From a virus (taxonomy: Duplodnaviria; Caudoviricetes): a stretch of 64,000 nucleotides of DNA. The position numbers and the translations under genes were made by a program. The notes below the pieces were generated by a model that saw nothing but the letters and a program-made list of their open reading frames with translations, was not told where the DNA came from and searched no databases. The DNA lies in IMG/VR virus record IMGVR_UViG_3300020036_004254. The stretch is one strand, 5' to 3'. This document shows positions 3,378-18,722 of this stretch, piece after piece. The number at the start of each line of letters is the position of its first letter. Positions within the stretch are counted from its first letter, which is position 1.

Positions 3378-4313
3378 ATGGAACCTATTTCACATGAGGC
3401 TCTACAAGATATCCTCCACGATGTACTCGTGGAGGAAGGTGTAGAGTTGACAGAAGTCGTCAATCGTGTGGCAAAGCGGTTGGCGACGGGAACCAAACCT
3501 CGAAAGCGTTTGACCCCCAGTAAGTATTTGAAGAAATACGGTAACCGTTGGCACAACCTGAAAGAAGATGCGGAAGAACTTTCTGAAGAGCTAAATCCCG
3601 CCACGCGAGAAGATTCGCCTTCTCTCGCACATAAATATACCAAGAAGAACAAAGAGACGGCAGAAGTACGCCGTGTGGGTATCGATGGAACCTTGCACGA
3701 AGCCAAGGGCATGACGCCAACGAAAGCCAAGAAAGAAGAGCGCATTGCCAAAAACCGCACCTTGAAAAATAAGTTCCGCGACCTTGATGCCAAGCACGAA
3801 ATGCGAACGTCATCATCAGGCGTTCCGCATACAGCGTCGGGAAAGCGCATGACGTTTGAAGAAGTCATTCCTGCCAAAGGAAACAAGAAAGACAAGCGAG
3901 CCGATGTGGTTGCCAAGGAACTCCCGACCATGCCAGCCGGAATGAATGCTGGTATGCGTATGATGCCTGAAGAAATTCTTCACGAAATCTCAAGAGATAA
4001 GATTTACGGTGCTTACAAGGAACGCTACACGTTGGCAAAAGCACACACCACGGTTGGTAACAAGGCCGAGGCAGAAAAGAATGCTCATAAGGCATTGAAA
4101 CATGCGGAATATCATGCGGGATACAACGATTCGCGTGAAAAGTATGCGAAGATTGCGTCCGCTCGTGCGGAAATCGCCAAACGTGCGAAAAAGGTGCGGA
4201 AAGAAGAACCCGCTTCTAAAAAAAAGCCAGAAGCAACACCCGCACCAGAACCAAAGAAGAAAGGGGCATCGAAAAAGAGTACCCCCAAGACCCCAACTAC
4301 GAAAGAGGAATAA
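3378..4313 (+). CDS. Lys/Arg-rich putative prohead core/internal protein
   Basis: Head-module position; LHE/LTE candidate gp21 sites; shares a motif with 2126 and 32078 ORFs. Confidence 0.45.
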   Translation: MEPISHEALQDILHDVLVEEGVELTEVVNRVAKRLATGTKPRKRLTPSKYLKKYGNRWHNLKEDAEELSEELNPATREDSPSLAHKYTKKNKETAEVRRVGIDGTLHEAKGMTPTKAKKEERIAKNRTLKNKFRDLDAKHEMRTSSSGVPHTASGKRMTFEEVIPAKGNKKDKRADVVAKELPTMPAGMNAGMRMMPEEILHEISRDKIYGAYKERYTLAKAHTTVGNKAEAEKNAHKALKHAEYHAGYNDSREKYAKIASARAEIAKRAKKVRKEEPASKKKPEATPAPEPKKKGASKKSTPKTPTTKEE

Positions 4314-12813: not shown

Positions 12814-13341
12814 ATGAGCAGACTGTTAAATGTTATGATAGACTTAGAGACAATGAGTACGGCACCAAACGCCGCGATTGTTTCTATTGGTGCGGTCAAG
12901 TTCTCGTTGAACGATGATGCCCCAAATCCCATTGTAGACAGCTTCTATTGCACCATCGACGCCAAGAGTTGTACGGCGGTTGGTCTACAGATTAGTAAGG
13001 CAACGGTAGAGTGGTGGTCCAAACAGCCACGGTCGGTAATGGATGCTCTCCGCAAAGACGCCAAGCCATTGAAGGAAGTCCTTGTCGAATTTTCCAAGTG
13101 GTATGGCTCAACCTCTCTCCCAACGTGGGGATGTGGGGCGAGTTTTGATAACGTCATTGTTGCGTCCGCATACGATGCGGTTGGGTTGATTCGCCCATGG
13201 AAGTACTGGCACGACCGTTGTTATCGCACAATGAAGGAAGTGGTCAAGCTTCCAGAGGACGACCGTCAGGGCACTTATCACAATGCGCTGGATGATGCCA
13301 TGCATCAGACCAACCACCTATTGAAAATTCTGAAGAGCTAA
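12814..13341 (+). CDS. DEDDh 3'-5' exonuclease (DexA/RNase AS-like)
   Basis: MIDLET, SFD, HNALDDA. Confidence 0.85.
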   Translation: MSRLLNVMIDLETMSTAPNAAIVSIGAVKFSLNDDAPNPIVDSFYCTIDAKSCTAVGLQISKATVEWWSKQPRSVMDALRKDAKPLKEVLVEFSKWYGSTSLPTWGCGASFDNVIVASAYDAVGLIRPWKYWHDRCYRTMKEVVKLPEDDRQGTYHNALDDAMHQTNHLLKILKS

Positions 13342-13343
13342 CC

Positions 13344-13769
13344 ATGAAACCAGCTTCTTTTTCCAAGACTTGTGGTGCGCCATTTCGGTGCATCTTCAGA
13401 GATTACAAGACAAATGGCCCCCTTTCGGGTCATGCGTTGTATGTAACGTTGAAGTTTGTCTGTGCATATCCGAGTGCGATGTCACACGACGATTTGGAAC
13501 AATTTGTGTTGAACGATACGCAGTGGGCCAATCAATATTTGGAAGAACTGTTGACTGACACCGTTCTGATTTCTCGGTTTGACCCTCTTGGAAACGTCAT
13601 TATCATCATGGAAACGGAGTCATTGATTGACGTTCGGTTGATGGATGACGTATCGCTTGAAGGGTTGTCCAAGATGATTAAGGAGGACTTTTCTCTCATG
13701 CTAAACCAAAAAACAGAGGGTGTTGTGGAACTGGCTGGCGTCGAGGTTCTTGAGGCTACGTTTGCATGA
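13344..13769 (+). CDS. Degenerate QueD/PTPS-like protein
   Basis: Layout like phage PTPS (FRCIFR..GHAL; LLTDTVLISRFDP; GVEVLE) but expected catalytic Cys/His not evident. Confidence 0.45.
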   Translation: MKPASFSKTCGAPFRCIFRDYKTNGPLSGHALYVTLKFVCAYPSAMSHDDLEQFVLNDTQWANQYLEELLTDTVLISRFDPLGNVIIIMETESLIDVRLMDDVSLEGLSKMIKEDFSLMLNQKTEGVVELAGVEVLEATFA

Positions 13770-14821
13770 AGATTGCCATTGTAACCGACACACACTTTGG
13801 GTTGCGCGGGGATTCGGAGGCGTTTGATAACGCCGCCCGTCGATTTTTCACAGACCAATTCTTCCCATACTTAGAAGAACATGACATTCAAGAAGTGTTT
13901 CATTTGGGCGACTTGTTTGATAGGAGAAAGTTTGTAAACTATCAAACGTTGCATAACTGTTTTGAATATTTCAACGGCCCTGTATCAGATTACGGATTAC
14001 GTATCATTCCCGGAAACCACGATGTGTATTACAAAAACACCAATCGGGTCAATGCCATTCATTTGTTGTTGGGGAGTGACTATGACTATGATTCAAAGTA
14101 CGTGATTTTCACACCAAAAGAGCTTGTAATGGGTGGAAGAAAGATTGCGATGATTCCATGGGTCACGGAAGACAATAGGGAAGAAACACTCAAGTTTCTT
14201 GAGAAAACTGACGCAACCGTGTGTATGGGCCATTTTGATATTGTTGGGTTTAAAATGACCAACGGTCAAGTGTGCGAACATGGGTTTGATGCATCGATGT
14301 TCAGTAAGTTTGATTTGGTCTTGAGCGGACACTTTCATCATAAGAGTCACAAGGGAAACATTCATTACTTGGGCTGTCCTTACGAGCAAACGTGGGATGA
14401 TTTTGGGAGTGATAAAGGATTCCACGTTCTGGACACGGATACGTTGGAGTTAGAGTTTATCAAAAATCCCAATGTCATGCACAAGAAAATTCACTATGAT
14501 GACTCTCAAGACCAGAAGATTGACGCAAAACAGTACAAGGGGTGTATGGTCAAGATAGTTGTGGTGAATAAAACGGACTACAAAAAGTTCGATGCATTGG
14601 TTGAAAAGCTGTATGTCGCGGGTGTGCTGGATTTGAAAATCATTGAAGATTTGATTGACCTAGAGGGGTTGACTTCTGATGACACCGAGGTTAACTTGGA
14701 AGATACTGCCAGCATTCTATCCGACTACATTGATGACGCTGATATTTCTTTGGAGAAATCACGACTCAAGGTTTTAATGAGAACGTTATATATTGAAGCA
14801 CAAAATGTGGAGAACATATAA
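13766..14821 (+). CDS. gp47: Mre11/SbcD-like nuclease gp47
   Basis: DTHFG, GDLFDRR, GNHD, SGHFH. Confidence 0.95.
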   Translation: MKIAIVTDTHFGLRGDSEAFDNAARRFFTDQFFPYLEEHDIQEVFHLGDLFDRRKFVNYQTLHNCFEYFNGPVSDYGLRIIPGNHDVYYKNTNRVNAIHLLLGSDYDYDSKYVIFTPKELVMGGRKIAMIPWVTEDNREETLKFLEKTDATVCMGHFDIVGFKMTNGQVCEHGFDASMFSKFDLVLSGHFHHKSHKGNIHYLGCPYEQTWDDFGSDKGFHVLDTDTLELEFIKNPNVMHKKIHYDDSQDQKIDAKQYKGCMVKIVVVNKTDYKKFDALVEKLYVAGVLDLKIIEDLIDLEGLTSDDTEVNLEDTASILSDYIDDADISLEKSRLKVLMRTLYIEAQNVENI

Positions 14822-17176
14822 GTGATTAACTTTACAACCCTACGTTTCAAAAACTTTCTGTCGTCGGGGAATGTATTTACGGAAATCAAGTTCGATGAAC
14901 ACCCCACCAATCTTGTGGTGGGGAAGAACGGCGCAGGAAAATCCACTATGTTGGATGCCTTGTGTTTCGTTCTGTTTGGCAAGCCATTTCGCAACATCAA
15001 TAAGCCACAGTTAGTGAACAGCGTCAACCAAAAGGCGTGTGTGGTTGAAATTGAGTTTGTGGTGGGTAAGCGGCAATACAAGATTGTGCGTGGGATTAAG
15101 CCCAATCTCTTTGAAATCTATCAAGATGGCGTTCTGATTGACCAAGATGCCGCGTCAAAGGATTACCAGAAGCACCTAGAAGAGAACATTCTAAAGTTGA
15201 ATTTCAAGTCCTTTACCCAGATTGTGATTTTGGGTGTGGCTTCGTTTACGCCGTTCATGGAACTTTCGGCGGCTTCCCGCCGAGAAATCATTGAAGATAT
15301 TCTGGATATTAGAATCTTCACGGTGATGAACAATCTCTTGAAAGAGAAGGTGTCGGACCTCAAGGATGCTTTGAATACCCTTGAGGGTGACTTGAACATA
15401 AATATAGCCAAGACGAAGCTTCAAGACAACTACATCAAGTCCCTGCAAGCGGATAGGCAACAGCGCATTGATGAGTTGAATCAGAAGATTGCCGAGGCCG
15501 AACATGACATCAGAGAAAAAGACGTTCATATCAAATCTTTTGCGGAAGATAGAGACAGGTTATTGGATATTCTTGGTGATACTTCTGGTCTGCGATTGGA
15601 AATTCAGGAAATTCATGCGTCGATTCGAGACTTGGAGAAAGAGAAGAAGTCGCTAACATCCTTAGCGGAGCTTTCCAAGAATCATACCCTCTGTCCGGTG
15701 TGTGTAATTCATCCGGACTTGTTAGAAGTCAATGCCAAAATTCGGGATTTGAACAAGGAGTACAATGCAATTCCAACCTTGACAGAGAAGTACATCAACT
15801 GTCCGGTGTGTTCTACTTTGCCAGCGATTTTGGACTTGGATGCAACAATTCGAGATTTGACGAGAAAAGAAACGTCTGCGAATCAGGCAATGGCTCTTCC
15901 AGAGGAATATACTGCTTGTAAAAGCTGTTCGGTTCTCCCTGAAATACTAGAGATTACCGCAACAATTCGGGACTTGGAGAAAGACAAGATAAACATCACG
16001 AAGACCTGTGGGTTTTATACGGACCATACCACGTGCCCGACCTGTCAACAAGACATCAGTGAAGAGTTGCGTCAAGACCATGTTGCGGAGTCAAACAAAA
16101 AGATTGATGATATCACCACCACGATAGTTGAGCTTGTTGCTCGGCGTAAAACGTTGGGGGAAACGGCGCATACCGAACATCAGGCGCGAGTCAAGCGTGA
16201 ATATGATGAAACGGTCTTGGGGCTGACTGAGGCAGTTGTGGAACGAGAAAAGTTGGGTTCGGTATCACACCAACTACATGTCAATTCGGTTGAACAACAT
16301 CGCGCCGATATCACGCAAATAATTCAGGTGTGTAATACGGAGCGTGACAAGATTGGTGAGAATCTCCACCGAATTCATACAGAGGAAGTAACCCTACGTC
16401 ACACCACTATTGATACGTCATTAGAAGACCTGACCACCAAACTTCAAGAGAAGAAAGTGGTGTCGGATAAGGTAGAGAAACAGGAGGGAGAGATTGCACT
16501 CTTGACTAACAAGATTTCCTCGCAGAATAGTGAAAAGCTTGGGCTTCAGCGGTTTATGGAAACTCTCGTCAAAGAGAAGTCTGAGTTGGAGAAAAAGGGA
16601 GGCAACATTGAAGAGGAGAAGGCCAAGCTTCGTACTATGGCATCTGAAGTGTTGACCATGACTTCAAAGAAGGCTGAACTAAAGGAAGAGAAAGATTATC
16701 ATGATGTGGCGGTGACCTTGTTGAAGGATGGTGGTGTTAAGACTCGTATCATCAAGCAATACCTTCCAGCCATCAATCAGATGGTAAACAAGTATCTTCA
16801 CGCTATGGATTTCTTTGTATCCTTTGAGTTGAACGAACAGTTCAGCGAGACTATCAAATCTCGCCACCGGGACGAGTTCAGTTACGAGAGCTTCAGTCAG
16901 GGTGAGAAACAGCGTATTGACTTGGCCTTGGTCTTCACATGGCGCACCATTGCAAAGATGAAGAATAGTACCAGCACCAACCTTTTGATTTTGGACGAGG
17001 TGTTCGACAGCAGTTTGGATGCAGATGGAACGGATTACGTAGTAAATCTTCTGAAGGTCATTGGGGAACAGACCAATGTATGGGTTATCTCACACAAGCC
17101 TGATATCATGGCGGATAAGTTTAGTAACGTACTACACTTCGTGAAAAAGAACAATTTCTCTGTTTTGGAGCGATAA
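14822..17176 (+). CDS. gp46: Rad50/SbcC-like ATPase gp46 with expanded coiled coil
   Basis: GKNGAGKST, FSQGEK signature, LILDE, ISH; 784 aa; four CxxC motifs. Confidence 0.95.
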   Translation: MINFTTLRFKNFLSSGNVFTEIKFDEHPTNLVVGKNGAGKSTMLDALCFVLFGKPFRNINKPQLVNSVNQKACVVEIEFVVGKRQYKIVRGIKPNLFEIYQDGVLIDQDAASKDYQKHLEENILKLNFKSFTQIVILGVASFTPFMELSAASRREIIEDILDIRIFTVMNNLLKEKVSDLKDALNTLEGDLNINIAKTKLQDNYIKSLQADRQQRIDELNQKIAEAEHDIREKDVHIKSFAEDRDRLLDILGDTSGLRLEIQEIHASIRDLEKEKKSLTSLAELSKNHTLCPVCVIHPDLLEVNAKIRDLNKEYNAIPTLTEKYINCPVCSTLPAILDLDATIRDLTRKETSANQAMALPEEYTACKSCSVLPEILEITATIRDLEKDKINITKTCGFYTDHTTCPTCQQDISEELRQDHVAESNKKIDDITTTIVELVARRKTLGETAHTEHQARVKREYDETVLGLTEAVVEREKLGSVSHQLHVNSVEQHRADITQIIQVCNTERDKIGENLHRIHTEEVTLRHTTIDTSLEDLTTKLQEKKVVSDKVEKQEGEIALLTNKISSQNSEKLGLQRFMETLVKEKSELEKKGGNIEEEKAKLRTMASEVLTMTSKKAELKEEKDYHDVAVTLLKDGGVKTRIIKQYLPAINQMVNKYLHAMDFFVSFELNEQFSETIKSRHRDEFSYESFSQGEKQRIDLALVFTWRTIAKMKNSTSTNLLILDEVFDSSLDADGTDYVVNLLKVIGEQTNVWVISHKPDIMADKFSNVLHFVKKNNFSVLER

Positions 17177-17177
17177 T

Positions 17178-17771
17178 ATGTATAATCAACGTGAGGTGGG
17201 TGCTTACATTCCCCCACAGAAGTTCTCTGTAGAGGGGCTTGACTTCGACCGTCTCTCCCTAGTACCTTTCGATGATGAAAGACTGACCACCCCACCACCC
17301 GAGTTCGATTTTGAGCAAGATGGGGTCCACGCCGAAACATTGGCTAATGGGATGTTCAAAACCATGTTGAAGTTTGGTGGGGTGGGACTATCTGCGAACC
17401 AGATAGGTCTGCCGTATCGGGTATTTGTGTTTGGTGGTAAGGATGTCCAACTAAACATCTTTAACCCAAAAATCGTTGGGGTATCCAAGGAAACGGTGGT
17501 TATGGAGGAGGCGTGTTTGTCTCTCCCGGGGTTCTCCTTGAATCTAAAACGCCCAACAGAAGTCACTGCATCCTACCAGAATGTAAGTGGAGAAGTTGTC
17601 GTATCTAAGTTTGTGGGTCTTGGGGCAAGAATATTCCTTCATGAATATGACCATATGGAAGGCGTGTTGTTTACTCAGTGGGCATCATCGTTTAAAATGA
17701 AACGGGCGGTAAATAAGGTCAAAAAACGCATCAAGAAGTTTGAGAGAAACAAACTCAACAATGAGAGGTAA
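17178..17771 (+). CDS. def: Peptide deformylase
   Basis: GVGLSANQ, EACLS, HEYDH. Confidence 0.92.
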   Translation: MYNQREVGAYIPPQKFSVEGLDFDRLSLVPFDDERLTTPPPEFDFEQDGVHAETLANGMFKTMLKFGGVGLSANQIGLPYRVFVFGGKDVQLNIFNPKIVGVSKETVVMEEACLSLPGFSLNLKRPTEVTASYQNVSGEVVVSKFVGLGARIFLHEYDHMEGVLFTQWASSFKMKRAVNKVKKRIKKFERNKLNNER

Positions 17772-17775
17772 CTAC

Positions 17776-18432
17776 ATGGATGAAGAGGAACAGTACATGA
17801 GCGGTTCACGAAATAATATGTTTGTCGGGAAGACGTTAAGCCAAATTCATAAGCTGTACATTTCAGGGTCTATCAAACAACCTGAGGAGTACATTGACAT
17901 GTTTGAAGTCATTCGTAATGCGGGAGAAAACGACATCATTTATCTGCATATCAATTCAGAGGGTGGGAGTTTATTCACCGCGATTCAGTTTCTTCGAGTG
18001 TTGGGTGAAACAAAGGCTATGGTTATCGCCTCTGTGGAAGGAATGTGTATGAGTGCCGCAACCATCCTCTTTATGGCGGCAAAGAACCACGAGATTACCA
18101 ACCACTCTATGTTCATGTTTCATAACTACTCCAACAAGGTTGAGGGTAAGGGTGGAGAGTTACACGACCACATCACCTTTGCGAAAGAATGGGGAGAAAA
18201 GCTCTTGCGTGATGTATATTCCAATTTCCTCACCGAGACAGAAATTGTGAAGATTCTAGACGGTAAAGATTTGTACATGACGAGTGAAGAGGTGGCACAA
18301 CGTCTTGAGAAACGAAATGCAGAAATTCAAAAGCTTGTGGAGTCGAAGAATTTGGTTGTGGCGGAAGAACCGAAAAAGAAGCCTCGGAAGAAGAAAGTTC
18401 TCATTTCACATCGTGACGGAGTGGCCGCATGA
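17776..18432 (+). CDS. ClpP-like protease
   Basis: INSEGGS, CMSAAT, FMFH. Confidence 0.85.
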   Translation: MDEEEQYMSGSRNNMFVGKTLSQIHKLYISGSIKQPEEYIDMFEVIRNAGENDIIYLHINSEGGSLFTAIQFLRVLGETKAMVIASVEGMCMSAATILFMAAKNHEITNHSMFMFHNYSNKVEGKGGELHDHITFAKEWGEKLLRDVYSNFLTETEIVKILDGKDLYMTSEEVAQRLEKRNAEIQKLVESKNLVVAEEPKKKPRKKKVLISHRDGVAA

Positions 18433-18722
18433 CAGAGTCTATTGCATACAAGTACAACGAGGGTGTGGCCTTGGCTGATGTCAAGGCGTACATCGACAAG
18501 ACATACTCGCAACATTATTCCCGGTCCAAGTTCCAAACCACGGAGTTTGTGATTGACCAAGGTCACGGGGATGGGTTTATGGTGGGGAACATCATCAAAT
18601 ATGCACAGCGATATGGAAAAAAGAATGGCTATAACAGAGCCGACATCATGAAGATTATTCACTACGCCATTATCCTGTTGCATGTTCACGACACTCGCCA
18701 TTCAGAGGAGTTACCATTTTAA
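18429..18722 (+). CDS. DUF3310-like conserved phage protein
   Basis: TYSQHY, GNIIKYAQRYGKK, DIMKIIHY. Confidence 0.8.
   Translation: MTESIAYKYNEGVALADVKAYIDKTYSQHYSRSKFQTTEFVIDQGHGDGFMVGNIIKYAQRYGKKNGYNRADIMKIIHYAIILLHVHDTRHSEELPF

Follow-up and report, generated by a model that had tools for sequence, protein, structure and literature searches.

The gene under study encodes a gp46 (Rad50/SbcC-like) ATPase and lies in a 64,000-nucleotide stretch of viral DNA (Caudoviricetes; IMG/VR record IMGVR_UViG_3300020036_004254), the whole of which is referred to here as the window. The coiled-coil arm of its 784-residue product, P0001, carries three CxxC motifs on the outgoing strand in addition to that of the apical zinc hook, and three HxxH motifs on the return strand (Table 1). 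The gene is directly preceded by a gp47 (Mre11/SbcD-like nuclease) gene, which ends one base before the gp46 start, and the same gp47-then-gp46 order is found on the contig that encodes P0004, a 718-residue relative.

P0001 gave Pfam matches to SMC_N (E = 2.7e-19, spanning residues 6–768), AAA_23 (1.1e-17) and AAA_29 (6.4e-8), matched PHROG 77 "SbcC-like" (4e-173) and, with its head, matched solved Rad50 and SbcC chains with E-values down to 7e-12; its SbcC_Walker_B match was under the Pfam cut-off (17.4 versus 27 bits). Both ATPase halves, a predicted antiparallel arm, an apical CxxC motif and the adjacent gp47 gene are all present, and P0001 is a clear member of the gp46/Rad50/SbcC family. 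An initial reading of the window made from sequence only had proposed this identity, which is borne out by the Pfam, PHROG and solved-chain matches together with the neighbouring gp47. The nearest cultured relatives are gp46 proteins of T4-like Synechococcus and Prochlorococcus phages (40–50% head identity), and the source is therefore taken to be an uncultured T4-like phage, with a host group that is likely photosynthetic judging from these relatives. P0001 is best explained as the working gp46/Rad50 ATPase of such a phage, related to the cyanophages.

Table 1. The gp47–gp46 pair and the motifs of the gp46 protein P0001, with positions in the window
Feature	Position	Strand	Length or residues	Basis
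gp47/Mre11/SbcD-like nuclease gene	13766..14821	+	351 aa	Pfam Metallophos, E 2.4e-13; PHROG 100 SbcD-like, E 1.6e-107
gp46/Rad50/SbcC-like ATPase gene, GTG start	14822..17176	+	784 aa	Pfam SMC_N and AAA_23; PHROG 77; Rad50/SbcC head matches
Walker A P-loop, GKNGAGKS	14921..14944	+	34–41	motif
Arm module array: four IRDL...CxxC units outgoing, three (L/I)G-x3-HxxH units returning	15587..16426	+	256–535	motif scan, alignment
CPVC, putative basal lateral knuckle; proposed partner H516/H519	15692..15703	+	291–294	motif, model
CPVC, putative middle lateral knuckle; proposed partner H483/H486	15800..15811	+	327–330	motif, model, P0004 alignment
CKSC, putative distal lateral knuckle; proposed partner H450/H453	15917..15928	+	366–369	motif, model, P0004 alignment
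CPTC, apical zinc hook (FYTDHTTCPTCQQDIS)	16034..16045	+	405–408	alignment with the hook of all relatives; reversal and beta-bridge in model
Return strand, one continuous predicted helix	16061..16618	+	414–599	AlphaFold2 (helix 215–400 in model numbering)
HTEH, after LG-x3	16169..16180	+	450–453	motif, P0004 alignment
HQLH, after LG-x3	16268..16279	+	483–486	motif, P0004 alignment
HRIH, after IG-x3	16367..16378	+	516–519	motif
ABC signature motif, SQGE	16895..16906	+	692–695	motif
Walker B, LLILDE	16982..16999	+	721–726	motif
H-loop, ISH	17087..17095	+	756–758	motif

Cysteine and histidine motifs of the arm

The CxxC motifs of P0001 are spaced 36, 39 and 39 residues apart, and an exact IRDL occurs four times (residues 268, 307, 343 and 382). 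On the return strand the HxxH motifs follow one another at exactly 33 residues. The sequence-only reading had given the protein length, the four IRDL repeats, and the strings, positions and spacing of the CxxC motifs correctly. It had also found the return-strand strings AHTEH, SHQLH and LHRIH, with the right coordinates for their first histidines, their spacing and the preceding (L/I)G-x3, but had named the motif HxxxH; the motif is HxxH, and HxxxH does not occur anywhere in the protein. When each extra CxxC is paired with the HxxH nested opposite to it, the residue numbers sum to 816 (366 + 450), 810 (327 + 483) and 807 (291 + 516), compared with 810 for twice residue 405 of CPTC, and the 3:3 symmetry that had been claimed about CPTC thus holds.

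In 200,000 composition-preserving shuffles of the arm, at least four CxxC motifs arose in 10 and at least three HxxH motifs in 1.3%, and none of 100 shuffled versions of the window reproduced the pattern of combined Cys/His geometry. The motif pattern is beyond chance. The repeat units within P0001 share 8–44% identity at the protein level and 30–52% at the DNA level, and the duplications must therefore be old; every Cys/His pair has been kept nonetheless. This divergence rules out a recent neutral tandem duplication. Together with the identical geometry of P0004 (described below), it agrees with the earlier suggestion of selection rather than neutral duplication, and the extra motifs are, on this sequence evidence, under selection. 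The extra outgoing units resemble half-hooks, with His or Tyr at position –3, CPxC or CKSC, then x3-Pro and the start of a new helix.

The apical hook and the length of the arm

The CPTC motif at residues 405–408 carries the clade signature FYxxHxxCPTCxQxIS and aligns with the single hook of every 571-residue relative, and in the AlphaFold2 model the chain reverses at this motif, with a beta-bridge between residues 404 and 411. The extra CxxC units lack the FY...CPTCxQxIS signature. By alignment and model, CPTC is the true hook, and the clade signature, the alignment and the predicted reversal all uphold the assignment made in the sequence-only reading.

The closest relatives of P0001, with heads 69–71% identical, are 571 residues long and have one CxxC, at residue 291. 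Relative to these, P0001 has 213 extra residues, ~114 of them in the outgoing strand and 99 in the return strand, which amounts to the addition of three modules of ~38 + 33 residues to both strands. The first CxxC of P0001 has the same residue number, 291, as the hook of the 571-residue relatives, and the simplest picture would be growth of the arm at its tip, with the old hook staying in place and becoming a lateral knuckle. Based on predicted helix lengths, the arm of P0001 would measure ~28 nm, against ~13 nm in the 571-residue relatives. The arm of phage Rad50 homologues has been reported as ~100 Å (PMC7752040).

Longer arms are also found without such modules. Nine metagenomic relatives of 595–708 residues have a plain coiled coil free of Cys and His, and the extensions in the long gp46 proteins of Vibrio phage QD01 (746 residues) and Klebsiella phage May (776 residues) are likewise Cys- and His-free coiled coil. 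Lengthening of the arm by itself therefore does not yield the motifs. The metagenomic proteins are P0253, P0148, P0225, P0263, P0125, P0170, P0251, P0045/P0126 (704 residues) and P0221 (708 residues). From these sequences, gp46 arm length seems to have grown several times, and by differing amounts, within the cyanophage-like clade, as if often tuned; arm lengthening thus appears as recurrent in the clade, and the module route as rare.

Conservation of the motifs in P0004

The other carrier, P0004, is 60% identical to P0001 and is encoded on a syntenic T4-like contig with genes for gp23, UvsY, UvsW, gp47, gp46, peptide deformylase, ClpP, and the clamp and clamp loader. Its motifs are CTVC at residue 291, CPIC at 330, the hook CPTC at 369, HNAH at 414 and HTEH at 447, that is, two extra CxxC and two HxxH. 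Equal counts of the two extra motifs in homologues had been set as a test by the sequence-only reading, and P0004 passes it with two of each.

Over residues 298–500 of P0001 (203 residues), a fixed offset of 36 brings the two proteins into gapless alignment. Each of the ten candidate ligands has its counterpart in this alignment, against an identity of 21% outside the ligands and the hook block, and the chance of the eight non-hook ligands matching was calculated as ~4e-6 (0.21^8). The Cys and His residues of P0001 that lie outside the motifs and the hook block (C396 and H493) are not kept in P0004. By gapless BLOSUM scores, the units of the two proteins are too diverged for individual orthology to be assigned.

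Searches for further carriers

Among the 270 proteins closest to P0001, 266 carry a single arm CxxC and at most one scattered HxxH. Of 120 IMG/VR gp46 genes with the same hook signature, the modules are present in the window's own phage and absent from the 119 others. P0004 surfaced in a whole-protein search. Word-index searches with the arms of P0001 and P0004, scans of IMG/VR and JGI metagenomes with back-translated peptides, and a tblastn search of 50,697 phage records with the arm returned no carrier beyond the window's own phage. Three geometry-only DNA patterns gave no further carrier on IMG/VR either, the seven other matches being out-of-frame, low-complexity chance matches. A HMMER search of 1.84 billion representative sequences gave 16,158 matches, of which the best 150 were listed; more carriers may exist, as P0001 and P0004 themselves sit behind 571-residue representatives in this set. 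A sequence search of the PDB with the arm found nothing significant, and a feature search of the ESM Atlas matched unnamed clusters and a Rad50_zn_hook cluster.

A different arrangement was found in a T4-like gp46 gene of IMGVR_UViG_3300048447_000254 (locus L039), which runs from base 4071 of the locus to the end of the contig. Right after the hook CPTC (residue 294), its product has a compact H-CNDC-x4-HTAH (C312, C315, H320 and H323), suggestive of a small local Cys2His2 site in the return strand. By its sequence, this is an independent CxxC–HxxH pairing in the same clade.

Predicted structure of the arm

Residues 200–600 of P0001 were modelled with AlphaFold2 from a nine-sequence alignment (model m3abad5f92ce6). 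Antiparallel hairpins were predicted for the arms of both P0001 and P0004, with a mean predicted local distance difference test (pLDDT) score of 88.6 and 92.4, respectively. In both models the return strand forms a single unbroken helix, and the outgoing strand is broken at each CxxC, a new helix beginning at the Pro of CxxC-x3-P; the knuckle loops are ordered (pLDDT 74–90 by 10-residue block), and the chain runs on in the same direction past the extra CxxC motifs. Foldseek comparison with the PDB retrieved generic antiparallel coiled coils only (the MukB elbow, Rad50, a Lamassu SMC-like arm and the dynein stalk).

The position of the knuckles relative to the histidines was estimated by arithmetic on the helix boundaries. 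The distal outgoing helix has 29 residues in both proteins and faces return residues 414–442, and the knuckle loop would therefore be level with residues 443–457, the LG-x3-HxxH block. The 33 return-helix residues of a module correspond to 49.5 Å, which is matched by outgoing helix plus loop in every module. These estimates make a Cys–His contact plausible. A complex prediction with two copies of residues 334–480 and three Zn (score 0.02, mark 0.42, no contacts reported) weighs neither way.

Proposed mechanism and alternatives

The reading that we favour, with moderate confidence, is that three intramolecular Cys2His2 zinc staples accompany an orthodox apical hook, former hooks having been turned into lateral clamps. 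The apical CPTC would remain the zinc hook between protomers, and the coiled-coil arm has been lengthened by three nested modules. In the outgoing part of a module, a predicted helix runs into a hook-like CPxC/CKSC knuckle, after which x3-Pro leads to the next helix; the return part is 33 residues of predicted continuous helix with (L/I)G-x3-HxxH. Each knuckle would lie level with one HxxH, so that two Cys and two His could bind one Zn in the same protomer, the proposed pairs being C366/C369 with H450/H453, C327/C330 with H483/H486, and C291/C294 with H516/H519. Such sites would fasten the outgoing strand, with its breaks, to the unbroken return helix and keep the long arm in register, and each chain would be expected to carry three intramolecular Zn and a half share of the hook Zn. 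What makes the knuckles look like former hooks is the His or Tyr at –3, the CPxC sequence, and the location of the first at residue 291, where the relatives have their hook; as the arm grew at its tip, each would have exchanged its CxxC partner in trans for a pair of His in cis. We infer the Cys–His contact, the binding of zinc, the cis arrangement and the evolutionary route of the staples, and the mechanism as a whole is well motivated but unproven.

Zinc knuckles have the consensus sequence CPxC, and the zinc of a treble-clef site takes two of its ligands from a knuckle and two from a helix (PMC4999995). As the His motif is HxxH and not HxxxH, the sites of P0001 are to be compared with such knuckle-plus-helix (treble-clef-like) sites rather than with classical C2H2 fingers. 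A classical beta-beta-alpha finger was rejected: the Cys pair and the His pair of a site are separated by 84, 156 or 225 residues, the His residues are spaced by x2, and P0001 has no match to a zinc-finger Pfam family.

Several considerations weigh against the staples. An HxxH in the middle of a long helix is unlike the classical C2H2 arrangement. Both strands of any hairpin arm must lengthen together, so that equal counts on the two strands are partly forced, and with only two lineages carrying the modules, the correlation of counts amounts, in these sequences, to a single gain or loss of one whole module. In a hydrophobic-moment test, the His pair faced the seam (within 45 degrees) at three of five sites, whereas H483 and H516 were 79–105 degrees off, with weak moments. 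Finally, cis and trans ligation are indistinguishable by sequence.

This last point bears on the main alternative, which we think unlikely, namely that these CxxC and HxxH groups bridge the two protomers of a hook-joined dimer through bound metal, with the arms zipped into a rigid four-helix rod, either through the CxxC of one chain and the HxxH of the other or through Cys4 plus His4 sites. This would amount to a closed rod state like that of Rad50 and SMC arms, but one dependent on metal. Such a zipper would fit the counts, the conservation and the fixed geometry equally well; the knuckles are hook-like, and hooks by origin bind in trans, and Rad50 arms lie alongside each other near the hook in rod-shaped states (see also PMC7752040). 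However, the monomer models are already confident and order the knuckle loops against the chain's own return helix, and the Cys4 plus His4 variant leaves the level Cys and His pairs on opposite strands of one hairpin unexplained. There is likewise only a modest chance that the zipper depends on metal or redox state, ligating across protomers or opening and closing reversibly, and thereby switches the dimer from open ring to rigid four-helix rod and back; if true, the arm zipping that lies behind Rad50 and SMC function would here have a chemically gated form. The extra units are also clearly hook-derived (H/Y-x2-CPxC, the first at the ancestral position 291), as would be expected if all four CxxC motifs were serial alternative hooks forming Zn(Cys)4 sites between protomers, giving gp46 ladders or networks or a variable effective arm length, with the His incidental or auxiliary. 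We hold this to be improbable, since it leaves the strict conservation, 33-residue period and mirror placement of HxxH unexplained, and since the extra CxxC motifs have neither the chain reversal in the models nor the signature of the real hook.

A role for the residues without metal, in helix capping or loop packing, in docking of a partner or DNA, or as redox-active CxxC disulfides, is in our view distinctly doubtful. A CxxC at a helix N-terminus is also a thioredoxin-type redox motif, and the His orientation by hydrophobic moment is ambiguous at the two sites named above. Against this, equal numbers of Cys2 and His2 pairs with x2 spacing, held at a fixed distance and kept over a background of 21% identity, are typical of a tetrahedral metal site; CPTC serves for zinc at the arm apex in this same clade, and the L039 protein has CxxC-x4-HxxH as a compact unit. 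A cofactor other than zinc, such as a Rieske-type [2Fe-2S] cluster or another metal that would make the arm redox-sensitive, is highly improbable. Two Cys plus two His do form the Rieske ligand set, and the likely photosynthetic host group would suit it, but Rieske motifs are CxH and CxxH in a beta fold as opposed to CxxC and HxxH on a helical hairpin, P0001 has a zinc site at its apex, and no data point to Fe–S.

Comparison with known systems

The T4 gp46/gp47 pair and the 570–571-residue gp46 of T4-like cyanophages (for example Syn9 and S-RIM2) and their metagenomic kin share with P0001 the gene pair and its order, the ATPase motifs and the hook signature, with heads 40–71% identical. These proteins have one CxxC and a short arm, whereas P0001 has the 213 extra arm residues, three extra CxxC and three HxxH. 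The long-armed gp46 proteins (P0045, P0126, P0221, QD01 and May) resemble P0001 in having a two-strand extension about a single apical hook, but this extension is free of Cys and His. In the Rad50 zinc hook of P. furiosus and human, a CPxC knuckle on a coiled-coil hairpin binds zinc, and the apical CPTC of P0001 is of the same orthodox type. The known hook is single, apical and intermolecular, with Zn(Cys)4 between two protomers (PMC7752040, PMC5093744). The extra sites of P0001, in contrast, lie along the side of the arm and would each use two Cys and two His, probably of a single chain.

Treble-clef and zinc-knuckle sites combine a CPxC knuckle with a helix bearing x2-spaced ligands (PMC4999995), as the proposed sites of P0001 would, and at the sequence level CPxC-type knuckles are found as CPVC, CPVC and CKSC in P0001 and as CTVC and CPIC in P0004. 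Unlike a treble clef, P0001 has no predicted beta-hairpin core, and the two halves of each site are 84–225 residues apart on opposite coiled-coil strands. Its candidate helix ligands are His and lie inside a long helix in the model rather than in the first turn; a Gly is conserved at –4 before HxxH, and the models show continuous helix with no beta-hairpin between knuckle and helix. Antiparallel helix hairpins stapled by disulfides occur in the small Tim proteins (twin Cx3C) and in CHCH domains (twin Cx9C). As proposed for P0001, their register is held by nested links between matched motifs on the two strands; however, these are Cys–Cys disulfides of small domains in an oxidising compartment, as opposed to putative metal sites on a cytoplasmic SMC-like arm.

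Rad50, SbcC and SMC proteins are thought to act through the length, stiffness and zipping of their coiled-coil arms, and to our knowledge the only metal site known in these arms is the single apical hook. Published accounts describe one central CXXC hook per Rad50 and short arms in the phage homologues (PMC7752040; see also PMC5093744, PMC6969161). Full-text searches of the literature found nothing on extra CxxC motifs, second hooks, HxxH or intramolecular zinc in Rad50/SbcC/gp46 arms. The lateral Cys2/His2 modules are new within the known gp46/Rad50 family. If the staples are real, they would reveal a new means of constructing and bracing a long antiparallel coiled coil, with former hooks converted to lateral Cys2His2 clamps, and a clear case of a dimerisation site re-used intramolecularly; this would come as a surprise to those studying Rad50 and SMC arms. 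If the sites are instead trans or reversible, they would bear directly on the control of nuclease activity by arm zipping. The natural variants of 571, 718 and 784 residues form a compact phage system in which arm length and rigidity could be varied independently, and assays for T4 gp46/gp47 are established.

Sequence variants and genomic neighbourhood

A near-identical 784-residue protein (1–2 substitutions) is encoded on several independent metagenome contigs, which rules out an assembly artefact. Residue 495 (window 16304–16306) is Ala in the window and Thr in the IMG/VR and other metagenome copies, and I325T and A440V are further variants; none of the three is at a motif Cys or His.

Besides gp47, the neighbours of gp46 in the window are genes for an Rv2179c-like 3'-5' exonuclease, a peptide deformylase, a ClpP-like protease, a DUF3310 protein and a gp45-like clamp. 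The Rv2179c-like 3'-5' exo(ribo)nuclease gene (window 12814–13341; Pfam E = 3.9e-44) is two genes upstream of gp47 and is kept on the P0004 contig; between it and gp47 is an open reading frame of 141 residues without any family (13344–13769). The peptide deformylase gene (17178–17771) and the ClpP-like protease gene (17740–18432) lie between gp46 and the gp45 clamp, and the pair occupies the same place on the P0004 contig (L001). The small DUF3310 gene (18429–18722) lies between the ClpP-like gene and the gp45-like clamp, and has no counterpart listed at this position on the P0004 contig. With its listed TTG start, the ClpP-like reading frame overlaps the end of the deformylase gene, and its true start may be further in.

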